Source of the DNA: Minisyncoccia bacterium
GTDB taxonomy: Bacteria > Patescibacteriota > Minisyncoccia > Phycocordibacterales > JAKFXT01
Reading direction: 5' to 3'
Length of the DNA stretch: 64,000 nt
Assembly: GCA_041485465.1 (NCBI GenBank)
Contig: JBGPJO010000001.1
Span: 29,017-93,016, forward strand
Under the pieces are notes generated by a model. It was not told the DNA's origin, searched no databases, and saw only the letters and a program-made list of their open reading frames with translations. The position numbers were made by a program, and so were the translations under genes. Position 1 is the first letter of the stretch, and every line of letters begins with the position of its first letter. Shown here in pieces: positions 9,677 to 26,489 of the stretch.

Positions 9677-10372
9677 CTACATCCACCCCTTTTTTTCAAG
9701 GGCGTTTCGTGCCGCAGATTGCTCCGCTTCCTGCTTTGAGCGGCCTTCGCCCTCCGCAACCAACTCGTCATTCAAGAAAACCGCGACAGTAAAGTATTTG
9801 TCATGATCCGGCCCGACTCCCGACATGGTGCGGTAAGAAGGAGTAACCCCAAGCTCATCCTGAACCCGTTCCTGAAAATGACTTTTAGCGTCAAGCCAAA
9901 GCTTTTCATTAACGATCGTATCGGTGAGCGGAAAAAGCGTCTCGGTTATGAAGTGACGCGCCACAGTATATCCTTGGTCAAGAAAAATCGCCCCAACGAG
10001 CGCTTCGAAGGTATTGGCGAGAATATATTGCCTCGCGCGACCCGTGTCCTTTGATTCGCCCTTTGAGAGAAGCAGAAATTTTTCCATACCGAGCTTACTT
10101 GAAATTTCAGCAAGCGTGTTCGCGTTCACTAATGCAGAGCGGTATGAAGTTAAATCGCCTTCCGACCTATCCGGATACTTTTCATAGAGATATTCGGTCG
10201 TAATCAATTCTAAAACAGCATCTCCTAAAAATTCGAGGCGCTCGTTATGCTCAAGCTTCATCCGCTTGTGTTCATTGATGTAGGAGCGGTGGGTAAAAGC
10301 CTGAACAAGCAATTTTTTGTTTCTAAAATGAAGGCCTATGATTCTTTCGAATTGGCCGAAATCTACTGGCAT
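9677..10372 (-). CDS. rnc: Ribonuclease III
   Basis: RNase III signature ERLEFLGDAVL plus a C-terminal dsRBD. Confidence 0.9.
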   Translation of the reverse strand: MPVDFGQFERIIGLHFRNKKLLVQAFTHRSYINEHKRMKLEHNERLEFLGDAVLELITTEYLYEKYPDRSEGDLTSYRSALVNANTLAEISSKLGMEKFLLLSKGESKDTGRARQYILANTFEALVGAIFLDQGYTVARHFITETLFPLTDTIVNEKLWLDAKSHFQERVQDELGVTPSYRTMSGVGPDHDKYFTVAVFLNDELVAEGEGRSKQEAEQSAARNALEKKGWM

Positions 10373-10490: not shown

Positions 10491-11447
10491 CTACTTTCCC
10501 TTTTTCTTTTTTGCCGTTTTTGCTTTCTCTCTTATCTTTACCGGCTCGGGTTTCTTCTCGGAGAGAAGGGTGATGCCCTTTGTCACAATCGGCAGAATAT
10601 CCTCGTAAAAATTCAGGTTCAAAGTATCGGCAATTTTAAACCATTGCGCCGCATCGAGTCCGCCGGTTTTTTTGAGCTTTACTTCTTTAAACAGAGCACT
10701 TGCCAGAAAATAGTTAACCTGTTTTCTTATTTTCCCTTTTTCCGGATCAGAAGCGACATACTCGTTACTACCAAGCTTTTCTTCGGGAATGATAGCGATT
10801 CCTATCTCTTCGCGAATGACTCGCTTAACACCATCTTCAAGAGATTCTGTCTCGATTATATGTCCTTTTGAAAGAGTCCAATGGCCAAAAATATCATGGA
10901 CGAGTGCGAGGTAAATTTCCCCTTCGTGGTGGGCATAAATCACCGCGCCGGCGAGTTTTTCGACCGGCATTTTCTCGAAGGGAACATTCGCGATTTTCTT
11001 CCGCTTCGAAACCTCATCCTTCCCCGGCTCTCCGAGTTCTTTATAGACGGCGCCGAGAACGCCGTTCACGAATTTACCGCTATTTTCGCCGCCGTAGGCT
11101 TTGGCAAGTTCTATTGCCTCGTTAATGGCAACTTTTGCGGGAACCTCGGAACGATTGGCAAATAAAAGTTCGTACAAGCCGATCCTGAGAATATTCCGGT
11201 CAACGGTTGAAATTTTATCGATCGGCCAGTCCGGCGCCGCTTTTTCTATGACAAGGTCAAGATCTTTACGTTTGGCGAGAAGACCTCGGCTTAAAGAATC
11301 CATAAAAGGAAAATCGCTTGCACCAGAGCTGAATTCTTTGGCGTTTCGCTCAATAATCGCGGGTATCGCCGGTTCGGGTAGTTTCATAAAGTCCCACTCA
11401 AAAAGGGATTGGAGAACAATAGATCTTGAAATGTGCCGATTCGCCAT
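10491..11447 (-). CDS. nusB: NusB antitermination factor fused to a C-terminal Nudix hydrolase domain
   Basis: Residues ~1-140 have a NusB fold (RNILRIGLYELLF..., FVNGVLGAVYKEL). Residues ~150-300 carry a Nudix box: GHWTLSKGHIIETESLEDGVKRVIREEIGI. Confidence 0.75.
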   Translation of the reverse strand: MANRHISRSIVLQSLFEWDFMKLPEPAIPAIIERNAKEFSSGASDFPFMDSLSRGLLAKRKDLDLVIEKAAPDWPIDKISTVDRNILRIGLYELLFANRSEVPAKVAINEAIELAKAYGGENSGKFVNGVLGAVYKELGEPGKDEVSKRKKIANVPFEKMPVEKLAGAVIYAHHEGEIYLALVHDIFGHWTLSKGHIIETESLEDGVKRVIREEIGIAIIPEEKLGSNEYVASDPEKGKIRKQVNYFLASALFKEVKLKKTGGLDAAQWFKIADTLNLNFYEDILPIVTKGITLLSEKKPEPVKIREKAKTAKKKKGK

Positions 11448-11534: not shown

Positions 11535-11783
11535 TTAGGATTCCTTGGCGCGAGAGGTGGTTTCCGTAGCGGCTTTCTTTTTTATCTTAGCATTCTTTTT
11601 GGCAATTTTTGCCGCAACGTCCACAACCATTCTGCCGTTGTACTTGCCACAGGAAGGACAGGCATGATGCGGAAGCCGGAGTGCCCCGCAATCGGGACAC
11701 TTTGAAAAACGCCCTCCTGTGAGCGCGTGGTGACTTCGGCGATTCGCCGTGTGCGCCCGCGTATGTCGCATTCGTACAACCAT
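11535..11783 (-). CDS. rpmF: 50S ribosomal protein L32 with lysine-rich C-terminal tail
   Basis: RRSHHALT... and CPxC...CPxC zinc-ribbon pattern of L32. Confidence 0.8.
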   Translation of the reverse strand: MVVRMRHTRAHTANRRSHHALTGGRFSKCPDCGALRLPHHACPSCGKYNGRMVVDVAAKIAKKNAKIKKKAATETTSRAKES

Positions 11784-11859
11784 AGTGGCTAAACCTTAAC
11801 AGAAAGTCCTAATTCGGGCAAGAAAAAGCACTCCTACCTGGAGCGCTTTTGTTCCATGT

Positions 11860-12210
11860 TTATTCAGGCAAGGGATTATCGATCACGACGAGATTTTCAT
11901 AATCATCGAGAGAGATACAACAACAAACCTCTTTTCTCTTGACCATCCTGTCGAGAGTCTTTTCGGCTGCCGACTGAGGACCCGTAAAACCGATTTTTTC
12001 TATCCGGCGAGTCCTGCGGTTAGCAACCACAAAAGGCAAATTGAACGGGTAATCGAGTTTTTGTCGACCACCGCACCATTTTGTTTTTGCGATCAGTGAG
12101 TCAAGGTACGCTTGATCAAGATCGACGGTTCCTCCCAGAGAGAGGGCGTTTAAATTTAACTCGGCAGGTTTAGCGCCTGATGCTTCTGCCGTCGTCTCAT
12201 TTCCCTTCAT
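11860..12210 (-). CDS. Hypothetical protein upstream of rpmF (possibly a degenerate YceD/DUF177-like protein)
   Basis: Sits where DUF177/YceD usually precedes rpmF, and has a Cys cluster near the C-terminus. No firm motif match. Confidence 0.3.
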   Translation of the reverse strand: MKGNETTAEASGAKPAELNLNALSLGGTVDLDQAYLDSLIAKTKWCGGRQKLDYPFNLPFVVANRRTRRIEKIGFTGPQSAAEKTLDRMVKRKEVCCCISLDDYENLVVIDNPLPE

Positions 12211-12287
12211 TCTTACTTCCCCCTAACATCACTGTTTGAGTTCAAGAAAGATTTTTGTACAACCTTTCTTAACTTAGCACGAGATCT

Positions 12288-12902
12288 TTAAACATTCAAA
12301 TCCCCAAGAAAATTCCCAAGAAAACTTTTACGATGGATGTCGGAGAGACCGTGCTTTCTTATTTTCTGAATGTGTTTCTTTGTTCCGTATCCTTTATGTA
12401 TTTCGAAATCATAATTTGGAAATTCTTTGGCTTTACGCTTCATATGTCCGTCTCTTTTGACTTTGGCCACGATTGAAGCGAGGGCGATTATTTTTTCTTT
12501 TTCGTCCCCACGAATAATCGTTTTTTGGTTTTTAAACCTATCCGGCGCATACAAACTACCGTCAAGAAGAAGAAAGGAGCGTCTCGGCTCTATTTTTAAC
12601 TTTTGAAGAGAACGGGTGAGCGCGATTGTAATTGCTTTCACGATTCCTTTCTTGTCTATCGTTCGACTGCCGACAAGGGAGGCGGAATAAAGAATCGCTT
12701 CCGAAGGGTGATTTCTGATTTTTTTAATCCAGGCTTCGCGAACTTTCTCAGAAATCTTTTTTGAATCTTTGACATCTTTGAACTCACGAAGGATTGAACG
12801 ATAAAGGATTTTCGGAATGGCGATTGCCGCAACCGAAACGGGGCCCGCAAGCGGACCGCGGCCGGCCTCGTCAATTCCAATAATGAATTTTTGTCCTCTC
12901 AT
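12288..12902 (-). CDS. rnhB: Ribonuclease HII
   Basis: IGIDEAGRGPLAGPV active-site motif. Start trimmed to MRGQKFIIGIDEAG. Confidence 0.85.
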   Translation of the reverse strand: MRGQKFIIGIDEAGRGPLAGPVSVAAIAIPKILYRSILREFKDVKDSKKISEKVREAWIKKIRNHPSEAILYSASLVGSRTIDKKGIVKAITIALTRSLQKLKIEPRRSFLLLDGSLYAPDRFKNQKTIIRGDEKEKIIALASIVAKVKRDGHMKRKAKEFPNYDFEIHKGYGTKKHIQKIRKHGLSDIHRKSFLGNFLGDLNV

Positions 12903-12930
12903 TACAGCTCGTATTGTAACAGGATATACT

Positions 12931-15900
12931 ATGGGCATGAGACCGTTCATCCATCTCCACACCCACAGCCATTACAGCCTGCTTTCGGCTCTGCCGAAAA
13001 TTCCCGACCTGGTCAAAGCCGCGAAGGACGAGGGCATGGAAGCACTTGCTCTTACGGACGCAGGAAATCTCTACGGGGCAATTGAATTTTATAAAGAATG
13101 TAAGACACAAGGAATAAAACCCGTTATTGGCGTTGATTTTTATCTCGCCCTAAGGAGTAGACTTGATAAGCAGGCAAACGTAGATAACCGGCGTTACCGC
13201 CTCGTACTTCTTGCAAAAGATATTGTCGGCTATAAAAACCTCATTAAACTCGTTACCGCCTCGTATCTTGAAGGCTTCTATTACAAGCCGCGCATAGATA
13301 AAGAGCTCCTTGAAAAGCATTCTGAAGGACTTATCGCGATACTTCCCTCTTTTTCTGGTGATGTCGCTTTCGCTCTTCGCATGGGAGATGCCGAGAAAGC
13401 AAAGGGTTTTCTTGGTGAATATAAAAAACTTTTTAAAAATGATCTCTATATCGAGATTACACATCACCCTGAAATCGAAGGGCATGAAAATTTAATGCGC
13501 CAGCTTGAAAAACTCTCGAGTGAAAGCGGAGTGCCCTTGGTTGGGGGACACGATGTTTATTACCTTTCTCCCGAGGATAAGAAGGCGCGCGAAACGCTTC
13601 TCTCCATCCAAAACAATGCCGATTTTGAAAAGAGCGGTTTTGAGAGCGACCAAAGTGATTTTTCTTTTATCAGTGTTGAACAGGCGAATGCATATTTCAA
13701 AGAAAACAAAGAGGCGCTTGATAATACAAAAAAAATTGCCGACCGGTGTAATCTTGAGCTTACGTTAGGCGAGTGGGTATTTCCGGACCTTAAACTTGAG
13801 AAAAGCGCCGACCTCACCCTGCTTGATCTTGTGCGCGCCGGCCTGAAGTCCCGCAATGTAAAAGAAACCCCTGAAATCAAAGAACGTATAGACTATGAAC
13901 TCACCATCATAAAAAATAAGGGCTATGCACGATACTTTCTCGTCGTCTCCGATCTTCTCCTTCACGCCAGAGAAAAGGGCATTCTCACAACAACCCGCGG
14001 CTCGGCTGCCGGTTCTCTCGTTTCCTACTTGTGCTACATCACAACAGTTGATCCAATTGAATTCAAACTGCCCTTTGAGCGTTTCCTCAATCCGGAACGC
14101 CCTAAGGCACCGGACATCGACATGGACATCGCCGACAACCGTCGGGATGAAATGATCGAGTATACGAAGAAAAAGTACGGGGAGGATCGCGTCGCTCAAA
14201 TCGGAACGTTTGGCACGATGATGGCGCGCGGCGCCGTGCGCGATGTAGCGAGAGCCTTGGGTTTTCCCTACGATACCGGGGACAAAATCTCAAAACTGAT
14301 TCCTGTTGGCTCCCAGGGTTTCCCCATGTCGATTGATCGGGCGCTCCAGATTACTCCGGAACTCCAAGAGATGTATAAAAAAGAAAAGGACGTCAAGGAA
14401 ATCATTGATAGGGCGAAAAAGATCGAGGGGTGCGCACGCCACATCTCGGTCCATGCCGCAGGAGTGGTAATTGCCCCTTCCCCGCTATCAGATTGGACGC
14501 CGCTCCAACTTGATCCAAAGGGCGGCAAACTGATTACCCAGTACGACATGTATGCAATCACGGATGAATATGGCGGCGTCGGACTTCTCAAATTCGACTT
14601 TCTTGGCATACGGAATCTTGCAATTCTTGCCGACGCGGTTCGCCTTGTTAAGAAACTGCGTAACATTGCTATAGACATAGAAAACATTCCGCTTGATAAC
14701 AAAAAAACATTCGAGATGCTCGCCAAGGGCGAGACTGCGGGTCTTTTTCAACTGAATGGTTCCGGCATGACCCACCACCTCAAAGAGCTAAAGCCAACAA
14801 CGATCTACGATATAAATGCCATGGTGGCTCTCTACCGTCCCGGGCCGATGGAATCGATTCCGCACTATATCGAACGCAAGCATGATGCCTCAAAAATTGA
14901 ATTCATTGATCCGCGCCTTAAAGAGATCCTTGGTCAATCCTACGGCGTCGTTACTTACCAGGATGACGTCCTTCTTATCGCCGTTAAACTTGCGGGCTAC
15001 TCCTGGCTTGAGACGGACGCGCTACGGAAAGCGATGGGTAAAAAAATCCCCGTTGAAATGGAGGCTCAGAAAGAAAAACTAATTAAGGGTTTTATCAATT
15101 ACGGTAAGATTTCTCCGGCAAAGGCGGATGTTCTCTGGCGCCTGATCGAACCCTTTGCCTCATATGGTTTCAATAAGGCGCACGCCGCAAGTTACGGCAA
15201 AGTCGCCTACCAGACCGCGTACATGAAAGCGAATTTCCCCGGCGAATACATGACAGCGATTTTGACCGCGGAAGCCGGCGACCTCGACAAAGTCTCAGAA
15301 ATCATCGCTGAATGTAAACGGATGGGCATTGCTGTTTTGCCCCCTGATATTAATGAAAGCTTTAAAGATTTTACTCTGGTGCGGGAAAATCCTGATAATT
15401 ATGCCAGCGACACGATTCGTTTCGGCCTCGGTAGTATAAAAAATTTCGGCGAGGGCGTTGCGGAGTCAATTATCACGGAGCGTAAGGCAGCCGGAAAATT
15501 TTCTTCTCTTGGCAATTTTATTGAACGTATTAGAGACCGTAATCTTAATAAAAAATCTCTTGAAGCACTCATTTTTTCTGGTGCCCTTGATGCCTCGGGC
15601 GAGCGCGGAGAAATGGCGGCAAACATTGAGGACCTGCTTTCCTACAACAAAGAATCCCTCAAACTTTCCGACCAAACCTCGCTTTTTGGAGTGAGCTCAA
15701 AAACAAACGAACTTACTTTAAGACCCGCCGATCCAATGCCAAAAGAAGAGAGGTTGAAATGGGAAAAAGAGCTTCTCGGTCTTTATGTTTCCGGGCATCC
15801 GCTTGATAAATTCAAGAAAAAGCTCGAAGGTAAGACGATGACTATAAGCAAAATAAAAAACGAACTTCAGTCCGGTATGCTTGCCGTTGCTTCTGGATTG

Positions 15901-16119
15901 ATTGAAGAGATAAAACCGATTTTAACCAAAAAAGGCGACCGGATGCTCTTTGTCAGACTTGCGGATTTCACTGGCTCAATCGAGATTGTTGTTTTCCCGC
16001 GAGTATACGAGGGCGCGAAAAGTTTTCTTAATCAAGAGCAGTGCGTCGCGATCAAAGGTCAGATTACCAACCGCGATGGTACACTCGGAATGGTGGCGGA
16101 GGCGGTCAAAGCTTTGTAA
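12931..16119 (+). CDS. dnaE: DNA polymerase III alpha subunit
   Basis: PHP domain (HLHTHSHYSLL), the polymerase core and a C-terminal OB region. Start set at the ATG at 12931 (MGMRPFIHLHTH); the longer ORF-track start would overlap rnhB. Confidence 0.9.
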   Translation: MGMRPFIHLHTHSHYSLLSALPKIPDLVKAAKDEGMEALALTDAGNLYGAIEFYKECKTQGIKPVIGVDFYLALRSRLDKQANVDNRRYRLVLLAKDIVGYKNLIKLVTASYLEGFYYKPRIDKELLEKHSEGLIAILPSFSGDVAFALRMGDAEKAKGFLGEYKKLFKNDLYIEITHHPEIEGHENLMRQLEKLSSESGVPLVGGHDVYYLSPEDKKARETLLSIQNNADFEKSGFESDQSDFSFISVEQANAYFKENKEALDNTKKIADRCNLELTLGEWVFPDLKLEKSADLTLLDLVRAGLKSRNVKETPEIKERIDYELTIIKNKGYARYFLVVSDLLLHAREKGILTTTRGSAAGSLVSYLCYITTVDPIEFKLPFERFLNPERPKAPDIDMDIADNRRDEMIEYTKKKYGEDRVAQIGTFGTMMARGAVRDVARALGFPYDTGDKISKLIPVGSQGFPMSIDRALQITPELQEMYKKEKDVKEIIDRAKKIEGCARHISVHAAGVVIAPSPLSDWTPLQLDPKGGKLITQYDMYAITDEYGGVGLLKFDFLGIRNLAILADAVRLVKKLRNIAIDIENIPLDNKKTFEMLAKGETAGLFQLNGSGMTHHLKELKPTTIYDINAMVALYRPGPMESIPHYIERKHDASKIEFIDPRLKEILGQSYGVVTYQDDVLLIAVKLAGYSWLETDALRKAMGKKIPVEMEAQKEKLIKGFINYGKISPAKADVLWRLIEPFASYGFNKAHAASYGKVAYQTAYMKANFPGEYMTAILTAEAGDLDKVSEIIAECKRMGIAVLPPDINESFKDFTLVRENPDNYASDTIRFGLGSIKNFGEGVAESIITERKAAGKFSSLGNFIERIRDRNLNKKSLEALIFSGALDASGERGEMAANIEDLLSYNKESLKLSDQTSLFGVSSKTNELTLRPADPMPKEERLKWEKELLGLYVSGHPLDKFKKKLEGKTMTISKIKNELQSGMLAVASGLIEEIKPILTKKGDRMLFVRLADFTGSIEIVVFPRVYEGAKSFLNQEQCVAIKGQITNRDGTLGMVAEAVKAL

Positions 16120-24104: not shown

Positions 24105-26489
24105 CTAGCGTACTTGCCAGCCATTTTTATGGTTCAAATTTTCCGTAATGAGAGCCATAATTTCATTCACTTCAGCGTCAGAAAGTGTTTTATCGTGAGA
24201 TTGAAAAACGAGGCGAAATGCATAAGAAATTTTTCTTTCTTTTTTGAACTGATCGAAAAGCATGGTGTGAACAAGAAGTTTCCCTGCCTGTTTTTCAATC
24301 GCCGTAAGAACATCCCCCGAGGAAATAGTTTCCGGAACAAATACCGCTATGTCGCGTAATAGATATGGATATGGTGAAAGCGAAGTATATTTTTTTTGTA
24401 TAGAAGGTTTTAAAGAATCATATGCACTAACTTCCGGTAAATTCTTGATTATCTCTTCAAGGTCGCACTCGGCAACAGAGACATCAATATCTCCTGGTTT
24501 AATTTCTTTTTTGCTGCCGAGATAATCCAGTAGTTTTTGGAATTCTTCCGCGAGTCTCTCTTTTGTCTCGAGAGTGGCTTTTTCTTTTGATTTCACTCTA
24601 TTGATTCCAAAAGCAATTGAGATTAGGGGCTCTTCCGTATCCAAACTCTTAAAAATTTCTCCTATTTCAAAAATTTTAACCTCACCGGTATCATAGAGAT
24701 CAAGTAATGGTGCATACCATGTATTTTTCTGAAGACTCTCTTTGAGGCCGTCCGTGAGATTTTTTCTTAAATATTTTTTATCAGAAGCAAGCGGATTCTC
24801 AATCTCGAGAGTTCCACTGTTTCGCATTGCATACGTATAGACTTCGGAAAATCCTCTCTCCTGAAAAAAGTGCTTGATTTTATTTATATAAAAGAAGTTT
24901 TTATCAATCTTGAGTAAGGTCTCCTTTTTTTGAGAAGCTGAAGTAATTTTTTCGAGGCCGTATATTCTCCCAATTTCTTCTATAAGATCGGCGCTTCCTT
25001 CAAGATCAAGCCTCTCAAAAGGAGCCGTAACCACAAATCGCCGTTCATCATCCTGAAGAATCCGGCGATAGCTGACAACCTCCTTAAAATCAGGGCTCTC
25101 CGAAAGTGCCTCTTCTAAGACTTTTCCACGGCTTTCTTTCCCTGAGGCATGAATGACATTCCCTTGCCCCAGATAGATGCCGACGTGGCTCACCCCGGGC
25201 TCAAAATTTTTACCCTTCATAAAATAAAGTGTTTTGGTGTGCACCGTACCATTGCCGCGCGAGAACACCAGATCTCCTGCCTTAAGGTCAGCTTCCTGTA
25301 TTTCCTCTCCATAAAAAAGCTGGTCGATTGAAATCCGCGGAATTGAGATTCCGGCTTGGGCAAATAGGTACGCAGTAAAGCTTGAGCAATCGAAAGCTCT
25401 TGGCGCGTCGTAGGAAATGCTTGCGCCATAAGAATATGCGCTGCCCACTAATGATTTCCCGAGAGAAAGTACTTTTTCATAGGGCGCTATTACCTCGTAA
25501 GGCAGATGAAGCCTTTTTAAAATCTTCTCGACATCCTTCTTTGTAAGGCTCTCGCCAAGGAGCGAGTTGATTTCCTTAAGAGAAACCCCCGTTTTGTAAG
25601 GATTTCGTGGGCGCGGGTAATAATCAGTGTAGCCTTCAAGATTCCCTCCGGCAATTTCGAGTATAAGTTTTACAACGGCGGGAAGCACAAAACGGGGAAG
25701 CTCGGGAGCAATACCGTTTTCAAAACGAACCGACGCATCAGTACGCAATCGAAGAAATTTTGAGGTAAGACGAATACTTTTGGCGTCAAAATTGGCTGCC
25801 TCAAGAATAATGTTTTTGGTATTCTCGGTTATTTCCGCTTCTTTACCTCCTTTAATTCCACCCATACCAAGAATTTTTTGAACATCTTTATCCTCGGTAA
25901 CAAGAATGGTTTCTTTCGGTAAATCATAGATTTTGTCATCAAGTGTTTCAAGAGTTTCCCCCGCGCCACTTTCCCGAACAGAAATTTTTACTGTGCCCTC
26001 CTTAGTACTTAATTTATCAAAATCAAAAACATGAAGCGGTTGCCCCAAATCGAACATCGCGTAGTTCGTTATGTCCACAATGTTATTGATCGATTTTTGG
26101 CCAAGTGCTTCAAGGCGTGCTTGTAGCCATTGAGGAGATGGACCGATTTTGACGTTTTTTATAAGAGCAGTACTAAACCGCGTAACTTTTTTCGTCTTTA
26201 CGGAAACCAAAACGGATGTGGTTTTTGGCTTAAGCCCGTTTTCTTTTTCAAAGGGATCTTTAGAAAGCGGAATATCAAGAATCGCTGAAATTTCTTTTGC
26301 AATACCATAGTGTGACAGACAATCATGGGCTCTATTAGGAAGTACTTTAACATCGAGCACTTCGTCCTTTCCGGTTTTCTCAATCCCCTCAATTTCAAAG
26401 GCATGCATCGTGAGCGCTTCGGCAATTTTTTCGCCTGACGGCAGGGAGTCTTTAAAATATGTTTGGAGCCATTCCCGTGAAATTTTCAT
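24105..26489 (-). CDS. pheT: Phenylalanyl-tRNA synthetase beta subunit with an NlpC/P60 domain inserted in B5 and no B2 tRNA-binding domain
   Basis: B1 goes straight to B3/4 (SPQWLQARLEALGQKSINNIVDITNYAMFDLGQPLHVFD). The B5 domain is split by residues ~335-482, which read GSAYSYGAS...FDCSSFTAYLFAQAGISIPRISIDQ...GDLVFS...SHVGIYLGQGNVIHA (NlpC/P60 Cys/His signature). B6/7 and the FDX-ACB C-terminus are present. Confidence 0.85.
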   Translation of the reverse strand: MKISREWLQTYFKDSLPSGEKIAEALTMHAFEIEGIEKTGKDEVLDVKVLPNRAHDCLSHYGIAKEISAILDIPLSKDPFEKENGLKPKTTSVLVSVKTKKVTRFSTALIKNVKIGPSPQWLQARLEALGQKSINNIVDITNYAMFDLGQPLHVFDFDKLSTKEGTVKISVRESGAGETLETLDDKIYDLPKETILVTEDKDVQKILGMGGIKGGKEAEITENTKNIILEAANFDAKSIRLTSKFLRLRTDASVRFENGIAPELPRFVLPAVVKLILEIAGGNLEGYTDYYPRPRNPYKTGVSLKEINSLLGESLTKKDVEKILKRLHLPYEVIAPYEKVLSLGKSLVGSAYSYGASISYDAPRAFDCSSFTAYLFAQAGISIPRISIDQLFYGEEIQEADLKAGDLVFSRGNGTVHTKTLYFMKGKNFEPGVSHVGIYLGQGNVIHASGKESRGKVLEEALSESPDFKEVVSYRRILQDDERRFVVTAPFERLDLEGSADLIEEIGRIYGLEKITSASQKKETLLKIDKNFFYINKIKHFFQERGFSEVYTYAMRNSGTLEIENPLASDKKYLRKNLTDGLKESLQKNTWYAPLLDLYDTGEVKIFEIGEIFKSLDTEEPLISIAFGINRVKSKEKATLETKERLAEEFQKLLDYLGSKKEIKPGDIDVSVAECDLEEIIKNLPEVSAYDSLKPSIQKKYTSLSPYPYLLRDIAVFVPETISSGDVLTAIEKQAGKLLVHTMLFDQFKKERKISYAFRLVFQSHDKTLSDAEVNEIMALITENLNHKNGWQVR

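Follow-up and report, generated by a model that had tools for sequence, protein, structure and literature searches.

A NusB–Nudix fusion conserved across the Parcubacteria group, with a Nudix box that has lost a glutamate in part of the family

As a bacterial transcription factor NusB is universal and has a single domain; the locus described here raises the question of what it means for such a protein to be joined to a Nudix domain in one polypeptide. The gene, written nusB::nudix below, lies in a 64,000-nucleotide stretch of a Minisyncoccia bacterium genome (GenBank assembly GCA_041485465.1, contig JBGPJO010000001.1, positions 29,017 to 93,016), the whole of which we call the window. An earlier note on this DNA had read the gene as one open reading frame (ORF) coupling NusB to a canonical Nudix box, and had suggested RppH-like processing of RNA 5' ends or hydrolysis of alarmones. 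We concluded that the fusion is genuine, ancient and conserved across the Parcubacteria group of the Candidate Phyla Radiation (CPR), and that its Nudix half is very probably of the diadenosine tetraphosphate (Ap4A) hydrolase type. For its role we tentatively favour, as a reading that falls a little short of probable, a tethered (di)nucleoside-polyphosphate-binding module on NusB that hydrolyses poorly in this lineage.

The coordinates of the gene and its parts are collected in Table 1. The reading frame is uninterrupted, and M1 is supported as its start since all homologues begin with MANRH. The first ~140 residues form a normal NusB, as the earlier note had it: residues 6-136 match Pfam NusB (PF01029; E 9.3e-33, 113.9 bits against a gathering threshold of 23.1), the NCBIfam nusB equivalog TIGR01951 is matched at 121 bits (cutoff 88.35), and phmmer aligns this half to the NusB proteins of T. 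maritima (2.7e-20) and Aquifex (2.2e-17) over their full length. Because the alignment extends to the end of these two proteins, the fusion begins exactly at the usual C-terminus of NusB. In an AlphaFold2 (AF2) model, run on a 52-sequence alignment, this half forms seven helices with a predicted local distance difference test score (pLDDT) of about 80-95, giving the all-helical NusB fold over the full domain, and Foldseek superposes it on NusB structures with a template modelling score (TMt) of 0.80-0.85 and a root-mean-square deviation (rmsd) of 1.7-3.6 A (1.7-1.9 A for 1tzv, 3imq and 3d3c). By sequence and predicted fold, residues 1-138 are thus like the NusB proteins of E. coli, T. maritima and Aquifex aeolicus. 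Canonical NusB is a single domain of about 140 amino acids (aa), within an expected range of about 130-160 aa, whereas the window protein has 318 aa and continues into a linker, a Nudix domain of 136 residues and a tail rich in Lys. The protein is therefore a NusB by every testable criterion but domain count, and we infer that this half binds S10 (NusE) and boxA RNA and supports rrn antitermination.

The second domain matches Pfam NUDIX (PF00293) over residues 177-280 (E 1.8e-8, 34.9 bits against a gathering threshold of 21.1), so that both halves pass the profile check that the earlier note had proposed. AF2 gives two confident domains (mean pLDDT 82.8) with a predicted template modelling score (pTM) of 0.49; since the pTM is only 0.49 and the linker falls below a pLDDT of 50, no orientation between the domains is defined. 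In the close relatives of the window protein G139-K143 and P156 of the linker are invariant, and across the deeper family its length (15-45 residues) and sequence vary. The Lys-rich tail is absent in most homologues, whose ends fall near residue 300. The two-domain architecture of the gene is virtually certain.

A frameshift, misassembly or missed stop that joins two neighbouring genes was the refutation named in the earlier note, and the evidence from other genomes excludes such an error at the junction, leaving it a negligible probability. The same continuous frame is found in at least 558 GTDB species genomes (one genome scanned per species) and in proteins encoded by assemblies from NCBI, JGI, ENA and Logan, and the linker itself is conserved in frame. 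The best 120 database homologues, drawn from these four sources, all carry both PF01029 and PF00293, are 60-79% identical and have about 300 aa; in a second set of 120 proteins, from a search seeded with a distant member (P0259), both domains are present in 120/120. This architecture recurs in hundreds of metagenome proteins. Named records come from Kaiser-, Taylor-, Nomura-, Adler-, Komeili- and Uhrbacteria, and Kaiser- and Komeilibacteria belong to the NCBI Parcubacteria group of Patescibacteria. Mean pairwise identity in the window clade (n=121) is 75.2% for NusB, 70.5% for the Nudix domain and 70% for the linker, and the fusion gene ranks first in conservation within its cluster; judged from these alignments, selection acts on both halves. 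In all sources the protein is annotated only as "transcription antitermination factor NusB", such that thousands of entries under that name conceal a second domain, and full-text literature searches turned up no report on a fusion of NusB to Nudix.

Several records at first resemble exceptions. One putative stand-alone version of high identity (P0128) was rejected as a fragment at a contig edge, and an apparent natural split (P0141, locus L083) was rejected because of an in-frame TAA at the codon of the invariant Tyr135. This single stop (GAV*KELGEP; L083 939-943, GCA_013565675.1, JACCDV010735530.1) breaks the frame, which is why gene callers list a separate "NusB" and "NUDIX" there; sequencing error, nonsense mutation and read-through are all possible explanations. 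Two further candidates for split halves, P0149 and P0244, proved to be unrelated stand-alone Nudix genes, in a mobile-element-like and a metabolic context, respectively. P0149 (150 aa, L081 4001-4453) is 40% identical to the fused Nudix domain, and its neighbours, a phage-type integrase (weak Pfam match), a DNA methylase and a Phage_rep_O-like protein (faint Pfam match), have the look of a mobile element. Two unusual arrangements were also seen: a 577-aa protein (P0202) with about 330 extra N-terminal residues followed by partial NusB and Nudix domains, and a 291-aa protein (P0229) with an apparent Nudix-Nudix tandem and no NusB. As to taxonomic labels, a contig deposited as "Candidatus Azotimanducaceae", a gammaproteobacterial family (L056, JBLHGD010000002.1), carries a typical Patescibacteria fusion with 65% identity and is probably mis-binned, and many third-party annotation (TPA) assemblies with a Parcubacteria-type fusion gene bear the label "uncultured Candidatus Saccharibacteria".

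The assignment of the Nudix half to the NUDT2 type, that is, to the diadenosine polyphosphate (ApnA) hydrolases, follows from its best profile and structure matches, which are ApnA hydrolases, and from an RppH score far below the cutoff. A profile built from 35 diverse fused Nudix domains and searched against the PDB finds the Aquifex Ap4A hydrolase 3i7u (3.1e-19), Chlamydia CT771 4ilq (2.3e-16), Ndx1 1vc8 (3.9e-14), human NUDT2 3u53 (3.3e-13) and the C. elegans Ap4A hydrolase 1kt9 (1.9e-11), and the Nudix domains of Dcp2 come next after the ApnA hydrolases at 4e-9. Foldseek likewise places 3i7u first (TMt 0.87, within 0.82-0.87 for structures of the alpha/beta/alpha Nudix fold), followed by Ndx1, CT771, the diadenosine polyphosphatase MutT1/Rv2985 and the C. 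elegans Ap4A hydrolase. The RppH equivalog model NF001936 gives 18.9 bits against a cutoff of 118, which places the protein outside RppH. RppH does share the Nudix fold, and its work at RNA 5' ends is of the sort that such a fusion suggests. The non-catalytic Nudix domains of NrtR and AraR are also among the structural and sequence matches, although weaker than the ApnA hydrolases. With the solved NUDT2-type enzymes (Aquifex aq_158 3I7U, CT771, Ndx1, human NUDT2 and the C. elegans protein) the window domain shares the HW-T-x-x-K-G motif, the phosphate lysines and the adenine-stacking aromatics; it differs from them in being fused to NusB, in having 22-25% identity and in lacking the intact box glutamate, for which it has Val.

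This last difference concerns the box that the earlier note had called canonical. The peptide quoted there, GHWTLSKGHIIETESLEDGVKRVIREEIGI, is indeed present as residues 188-217, but G195-I217 agrees with the consensus GX5EX7REUXEEXGU at only eight of nine specified positions, the second ("RE") glutamate being replaced by Val210. In HMMER alignments the RE glutamates of CT771 and Thermus Ndx1 face V210. The Nudix motif of E. coli RppH comprises residues 38-60, and its E53A variant is catalytically inactive (PMC6061791); from this span the V210 column corresponds to RppH E53. The box is hence not canonical at a position that matters, and the window protein does not carry a complete Nudix box. 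Of the 121 sequences in the close clade, 56 have Ala at position 210, 37 have Val, 16 Glu and 8 Lys, so that Ala or Val stands there in 93 (77%). The first glycine of the box is present in 72 of the same sequences and replaced by Ser in 49, and conservation lies at 93-100% for E201, R209, E213 (counting E and D), E214 and G216; E214 is retained in 88-100% of sequences across the sets compared.

The erosion of the box is, judging from the alignments, specific to clades and does not extend to the whole family. In the sister fused clade (Komeili-/Uhrbacteria-labelled; the 120 proteins of the second set) a fully canonical WTFPKGH...RE.xEEtGL box is present in 118/120, and in some other fused lineages two or three of the box glutamates are gone. 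All three glutamates of REUXEE are kept in 9/50 diverse fused representatives and in 19/22 distant stand-alone relatives of about 140 aa, counts that are not phylogenetically independent; the representatives were taken at 50% identity from a search of 1.84 billion proteins with the Nudix half alone as query, which gave 719 clusters at E<=1e-3. The complete box of the sister clade makes it probable that, in the ancestor, the fused domain was an active pyrophosphohydrolase of the ApnA type, and the window clade probably represents a derived state with one glutamate lost. A rough neighbour-joining (NJ) tree of the Nudix domains does not separate one from two fusion events for the two fused clades.

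The residues expected to contact a ligand have been kept far better. In human NUDT2 the P1 phosphate is bound by Lys42, Tyr82 and Lys89, and the adenine is stacked by Tyr82 and Phe128 (PMC4734340). In an alignment of sequences, rather than a ligand-bound model, these residues correspond to K194 (K42), Y230 (Y82), K242 (K89) and Y281 (F128) of the window protein. The 50 diverse fused representatives have K194 in 98% of cases, Y281 in 96%, Y230 in 82% and K242 in 76%, and K194, Y246, W269 and Y281 are each retained in 96-98%. K194, K242 and Y281 are invariant in both clade sets of 120-121 members; Y230 is invariant only in that of the window. Across these alignments the ligand-contact residues are the most conserved, and the catalytic carboxylates are variably lost.

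Considering the above results, we propose that the NusB half would make its usual contact with boxA RNA, together with S10, in the rRNA antitermination complex, and that the Nudix half would add to this complex a pocket for a Mg-(di)nucleoside polyphosphate. In the window lineage the ligand would be bound and hydrolysed slowly or not at all, which we consider most likely because Val210 has replaced the glutamate while the phosphate lysines and adenine-stacking aromatics are near-invariant. Candidate ligands would be a free nucleotide of the ApnA or nucleoside triphosphate (NTP) type, or the triphosphate (ppp) or nucleoside tetraphosphate (Np4)-capped 5' end of the nascent leader, and the evidence in hand favours neither an RNA 5' end nor a free nucleotide. 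The Nudix domain would accordingly be a ligand-sensing or ligand-holding accessory of NusB and not a housekeeping enzyme. That hydrolysis is impaired and that the domain is also functionally coupled to NusB, both together, is a possibility we hold with some doubt. The closest functional analogy for a non-hydrolysing domain is CF Im25 (NUDT21), whose Nudix fold is related to that of the Ap4A hydrolases and which, lacking two box glutamates, binds Ap4A without hydrolysing it in an RNA-processing complex (PMC2425470). It differs in being eukaryotic, in missing the second and fourth glutamates and in having no transcription-factor fusion, and it is not close in sequence. NrtR and AraR are a precedent for joining a non-catalytic Nudix-like ligand sensor to a module that binds nucleic acid; in these two the sensor is paired with a winged-helix DNA-binding domain, and the ligands are ADP-ribose and arabinose. 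For the other half, RsmB/Sun is a precedent in which an N-terminal RNA-binding module of NusB type is carried by an rRNA-directed enzyme, the 16S rRNA 5-methylcytosine (m5C) methyltransferase, its partner domain being an S-adenosylmethionine (SAM) methyltransferase where that of the window protein is Nudix. The window protein itself is not RsmB: RsmB models align to residues about 30-150 only, at 19-54 bits against cutoffs of 269-540, and it has no methyltransferase domain.

Dinucleoside-polyphosphate alarmones are made by aminoacyl-tRNA synthetases. In its widest form the proposal would be that the antitermination complex of the Parcubacteria group carries its own ApnA-type site on NusB, through which an alarmone directly tunes both the transcription and the processing of rRNA, or the ppp- or Np4A-capped 5' end of the nascent pre-rRNA leader is captured or decapped co-transcriptionally, lineages having shifted between hydrolysing and binding-only (Val/Ala) forms; taken as a whole, this is speculative and rather unlikely. 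The transcription antitermination complex for rRNA (rrnTAC) boosts the co-transcriptional processing that RNase III carries out (bioRxiv 10.64898/2026.03.17.712431), which provides a functional rationale for the conserved linkage of nusB and rnc. If the proposal were true, a lineage-wide version of NusB with a covalent nucleotide-polyphosphate module would give the control of rRNA synthesis a new input, or act on 5' ends during transcription in a new way, within a vast bacterial radiation that is poorly understood and whose regulatory repertoires are minimal. Natural variants with an active and with a degenerate box already exist for comparison. The architecture is solid and widespread, and the biology it implies is plausible and entirely inferential.

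Several observations weigh against a binding module with poor hydrolysis. The AF2 model offers no structural evidence of communication between the domains. In the close clade E201, R209, E213 (E/D) and E214 are at least 97% conserved, more than one would expect after a complete loss of metal binding and catalysis, so that residual or altered activity is possible; this conservation suggests a retained metal site, and E229 might serve as a substitute base. The canonical glutamate at position 210 in 16/121 close relatives and in 118/120 members of the sister clade means that catalytic loss is not the rule of the family. The Nudix half is moreover acidic (isoelectric point (pI) about 5, net charge -8) and thus has no signature of RNA-backbone binding; this acidity argues against extensive binding of an RNA backbone, not against binding of a 5'-terminal nucleotide.

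Some of the same observations bear on an active RNA 5'-end enzyme, in which NusB docks on boxA and the Nudix domain strips pyrophosphate or an Np4A/NAD-type cap from the pre-rRNA leader co-transcriptionally, readying it for 5'-monophosphate-dependent RNases alongside RNase III. NUDT2, of the family to which the domain is assigned, converts 5'-triphosphate RNA (PPP-RNA) to 5'-monophosphate RNA (P-RNA) (PMC8616924), Dcp2 is the next-best profile match, the box is intact in the sister fused clade, E201, E213 and E214 are conserved in the window clade, the RNase III gene is conserved directly downstream, and tethering should favour a polymer-bound substrate. Set against these are Val210 at the site whose replacement inactivates RppH, the RppH score, the acidic domain with no basic RNA-binding surface, and the loss of two or three box glutamates in several fused lineages; we regard such an enzyme as unlikely. 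Both suggestions of the earlier note are nevertheless reasonable for the family, since NUDT2-like proteins are alarmone hydrolases and the human member trims 5'-PPP RNA (PMC8616924). What stands of them is the Ap4A/alarmone-hydrolase type of the family and the intact box of the sister clade. The RppH-like part finds no support in the model score, and with the E53-equivalent glutamate missing as well, efficient hydrolysis by the canonical mechanism is doubtful for the window protein.

A housekeeping hydrolase of ApnA or for nucleotide sanitation could also have been joined to NusB during genome compaction in CPR, giving an independent bifunctional fusion with no mechanistic meaning. The flexible and variable linker with no confident packing between the domains would fit this, as would stand-alone relatives that are ordinary Nudix proteins of about 140 aa in unrelated contexts and a sister clade whose canonical box suits a plain enzyme. 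However, no natural nusB/nudix split genes were found among hundreds of genomes, the linker is conserved like the domains within the close clade, and the catalytic glutamates were lost while the domain and its ligand contacts stayed under selection, which a housekeeping hydrolase would not tolerate. We consider an independent fusion fairly unlikely.

The erosion of the box raises the alternative of a purely structural scaffold, a Nudix fold serving as a protein-protein module of the antitermination complex with no nucleotide involved. A precedent is SuhB, a protein with the fold of a metabolic enzyme that has become a subunit of the E. coli rrnTAC (PMC6614801, PMC6614797), the complex where NusB works; SuhB differs in having an inositol monophosphatase fold and in being a separate, unfused polypeptide. 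The box is eroded in many fused lineages, and in one member (P0187) NUDIX no longer appears in the precomputed Pfam list. The near-invariant K194, K242 and Y281, which align to phosphate and adenine contacts of Ap4A hydrolases, speak against a scaffold, as does the retention of E214, and we judge it improbable.

The fusion gene lies in a cluster of the same strand (Table 1), in which rnc and smc follow it as the earlier note had stated. The order dnaE(-), rnhB, rpmF, nusB::nudix, rnc, smc is kept in 80/80 related loci, as far as the contigs reach; rnc follows the fusion in 79/80, with a median estimated gap of 53 bp. Two very distant members, with Nudix halves 29-34% identical, lie in the same rpmF-fusion-rnc-smc cluster, with junctions that overlap or are 1-2 bp apart. 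A search of all frames of the window and of about 0.94 Mb of related flanking loci found no second copy of NusB or Nudix. Counts from a promoter and terminator scan of 9.4-13 kb are within about 1.5 standard deviations of the shuffled expectation, with no clear intergenic terminator in the cluster, and an Rfam search of the window found one tRNA only, no rRNA operon, boxA context or rpsJ being present in it.

Table 1. Features of the nusB::nudix gene and its neighbours, in window positions
Feature	Coordinates	Strand	Evidence and remarks
nusB::nudix fusion ORF	10491..11447	minus	Uninterrupted, 318 aa + stop; both domains above curated cutoffs
NusB domain, residues 1-138	11034..11447	minus	Pfam, TIGR01951, phmmer, Foldseek
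Linker, residues 139-160 (GEPGKDEVSKRKKIANVPFEKM)	10968..11033	minus	AF2 pLDDT <50 at residues 141-152
Nudix-fold domain, residues 161-296, very probably NUDT2/Ap4A-hydrolase type	10560..10967	minus	Pfam NUDIX, PDB profile search, Foldseek
Degenerate Nudix box, residues 195-217 (GHIIETESLEDGVKRVIREEIGI)	10797..10865	minus	A scan of the window in all six frames gave no other Nudix-box-like match
Val210 codon GTC, at the second ("RE") box glutamate	10818..10820	minus	Read directly from the DNA
Lys-rich C-terminal tail, residues 297-318	10494..10559	minus	pLDDT <50
rpmF (ribosomal protein L32)	11535..11783	minus	Immediately upstream; Pfam Ribosomal_L32p 3.1e-15; syntenic in 79/80 loci
rnc (RNase III)	9677..10372	minus	Next downstream; Pfam Ribonucleas_3_3 1.1e-40 and dsrm
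Short smc, 751 aa	7315..9570	minus	Downstream of rnc; Pfam SMC_N 8.2e-64; syntenic in 70/80 loci
rnhB (RNase HII), longest-ORF call	12288-12962	minus	Further upstream of rpmF

Canonical SMC proteins have about 1,180 aa. The SMC protein of the cluster is short both here and in distant relatives (735-852 aa; L087 6054-8612, L088 5348-7555), matches SMC_N from end to end and looks like a form with a reduced coiled coil or hinge. Upstream, the rnhB call and a dnaE call (12817-16119, plus strand) overlap head to head by 146 bp; because N-terminal extensions precede the conserved regions of both, their true starts are probably internal, near MRGQKF for rnhB and near MGMRPF for dnaE. The spacer between rpmF and rnhB (11784-12287) contains a 116-aa ORF (11860-12210, minus strand) with no Pfam match and no tblastn match in the 80 syntenic loci, which is either an orphan gene or belongs to a non-coding spacer, about 500 bp long and peculiar to this genome. 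Elsewhere in the window, a 794-aa phenylalanyl-tRNA synthetase beta chain (24105-26489, minus strand) with B3_4, B5 and FDX-ACB domains contains an internal domain of the NlpC/P60 peptidase family (residues 349-453, Pfam E 4.3e-18), an unusual insertion for an aminoacyl-tRNA synthetase subunit.

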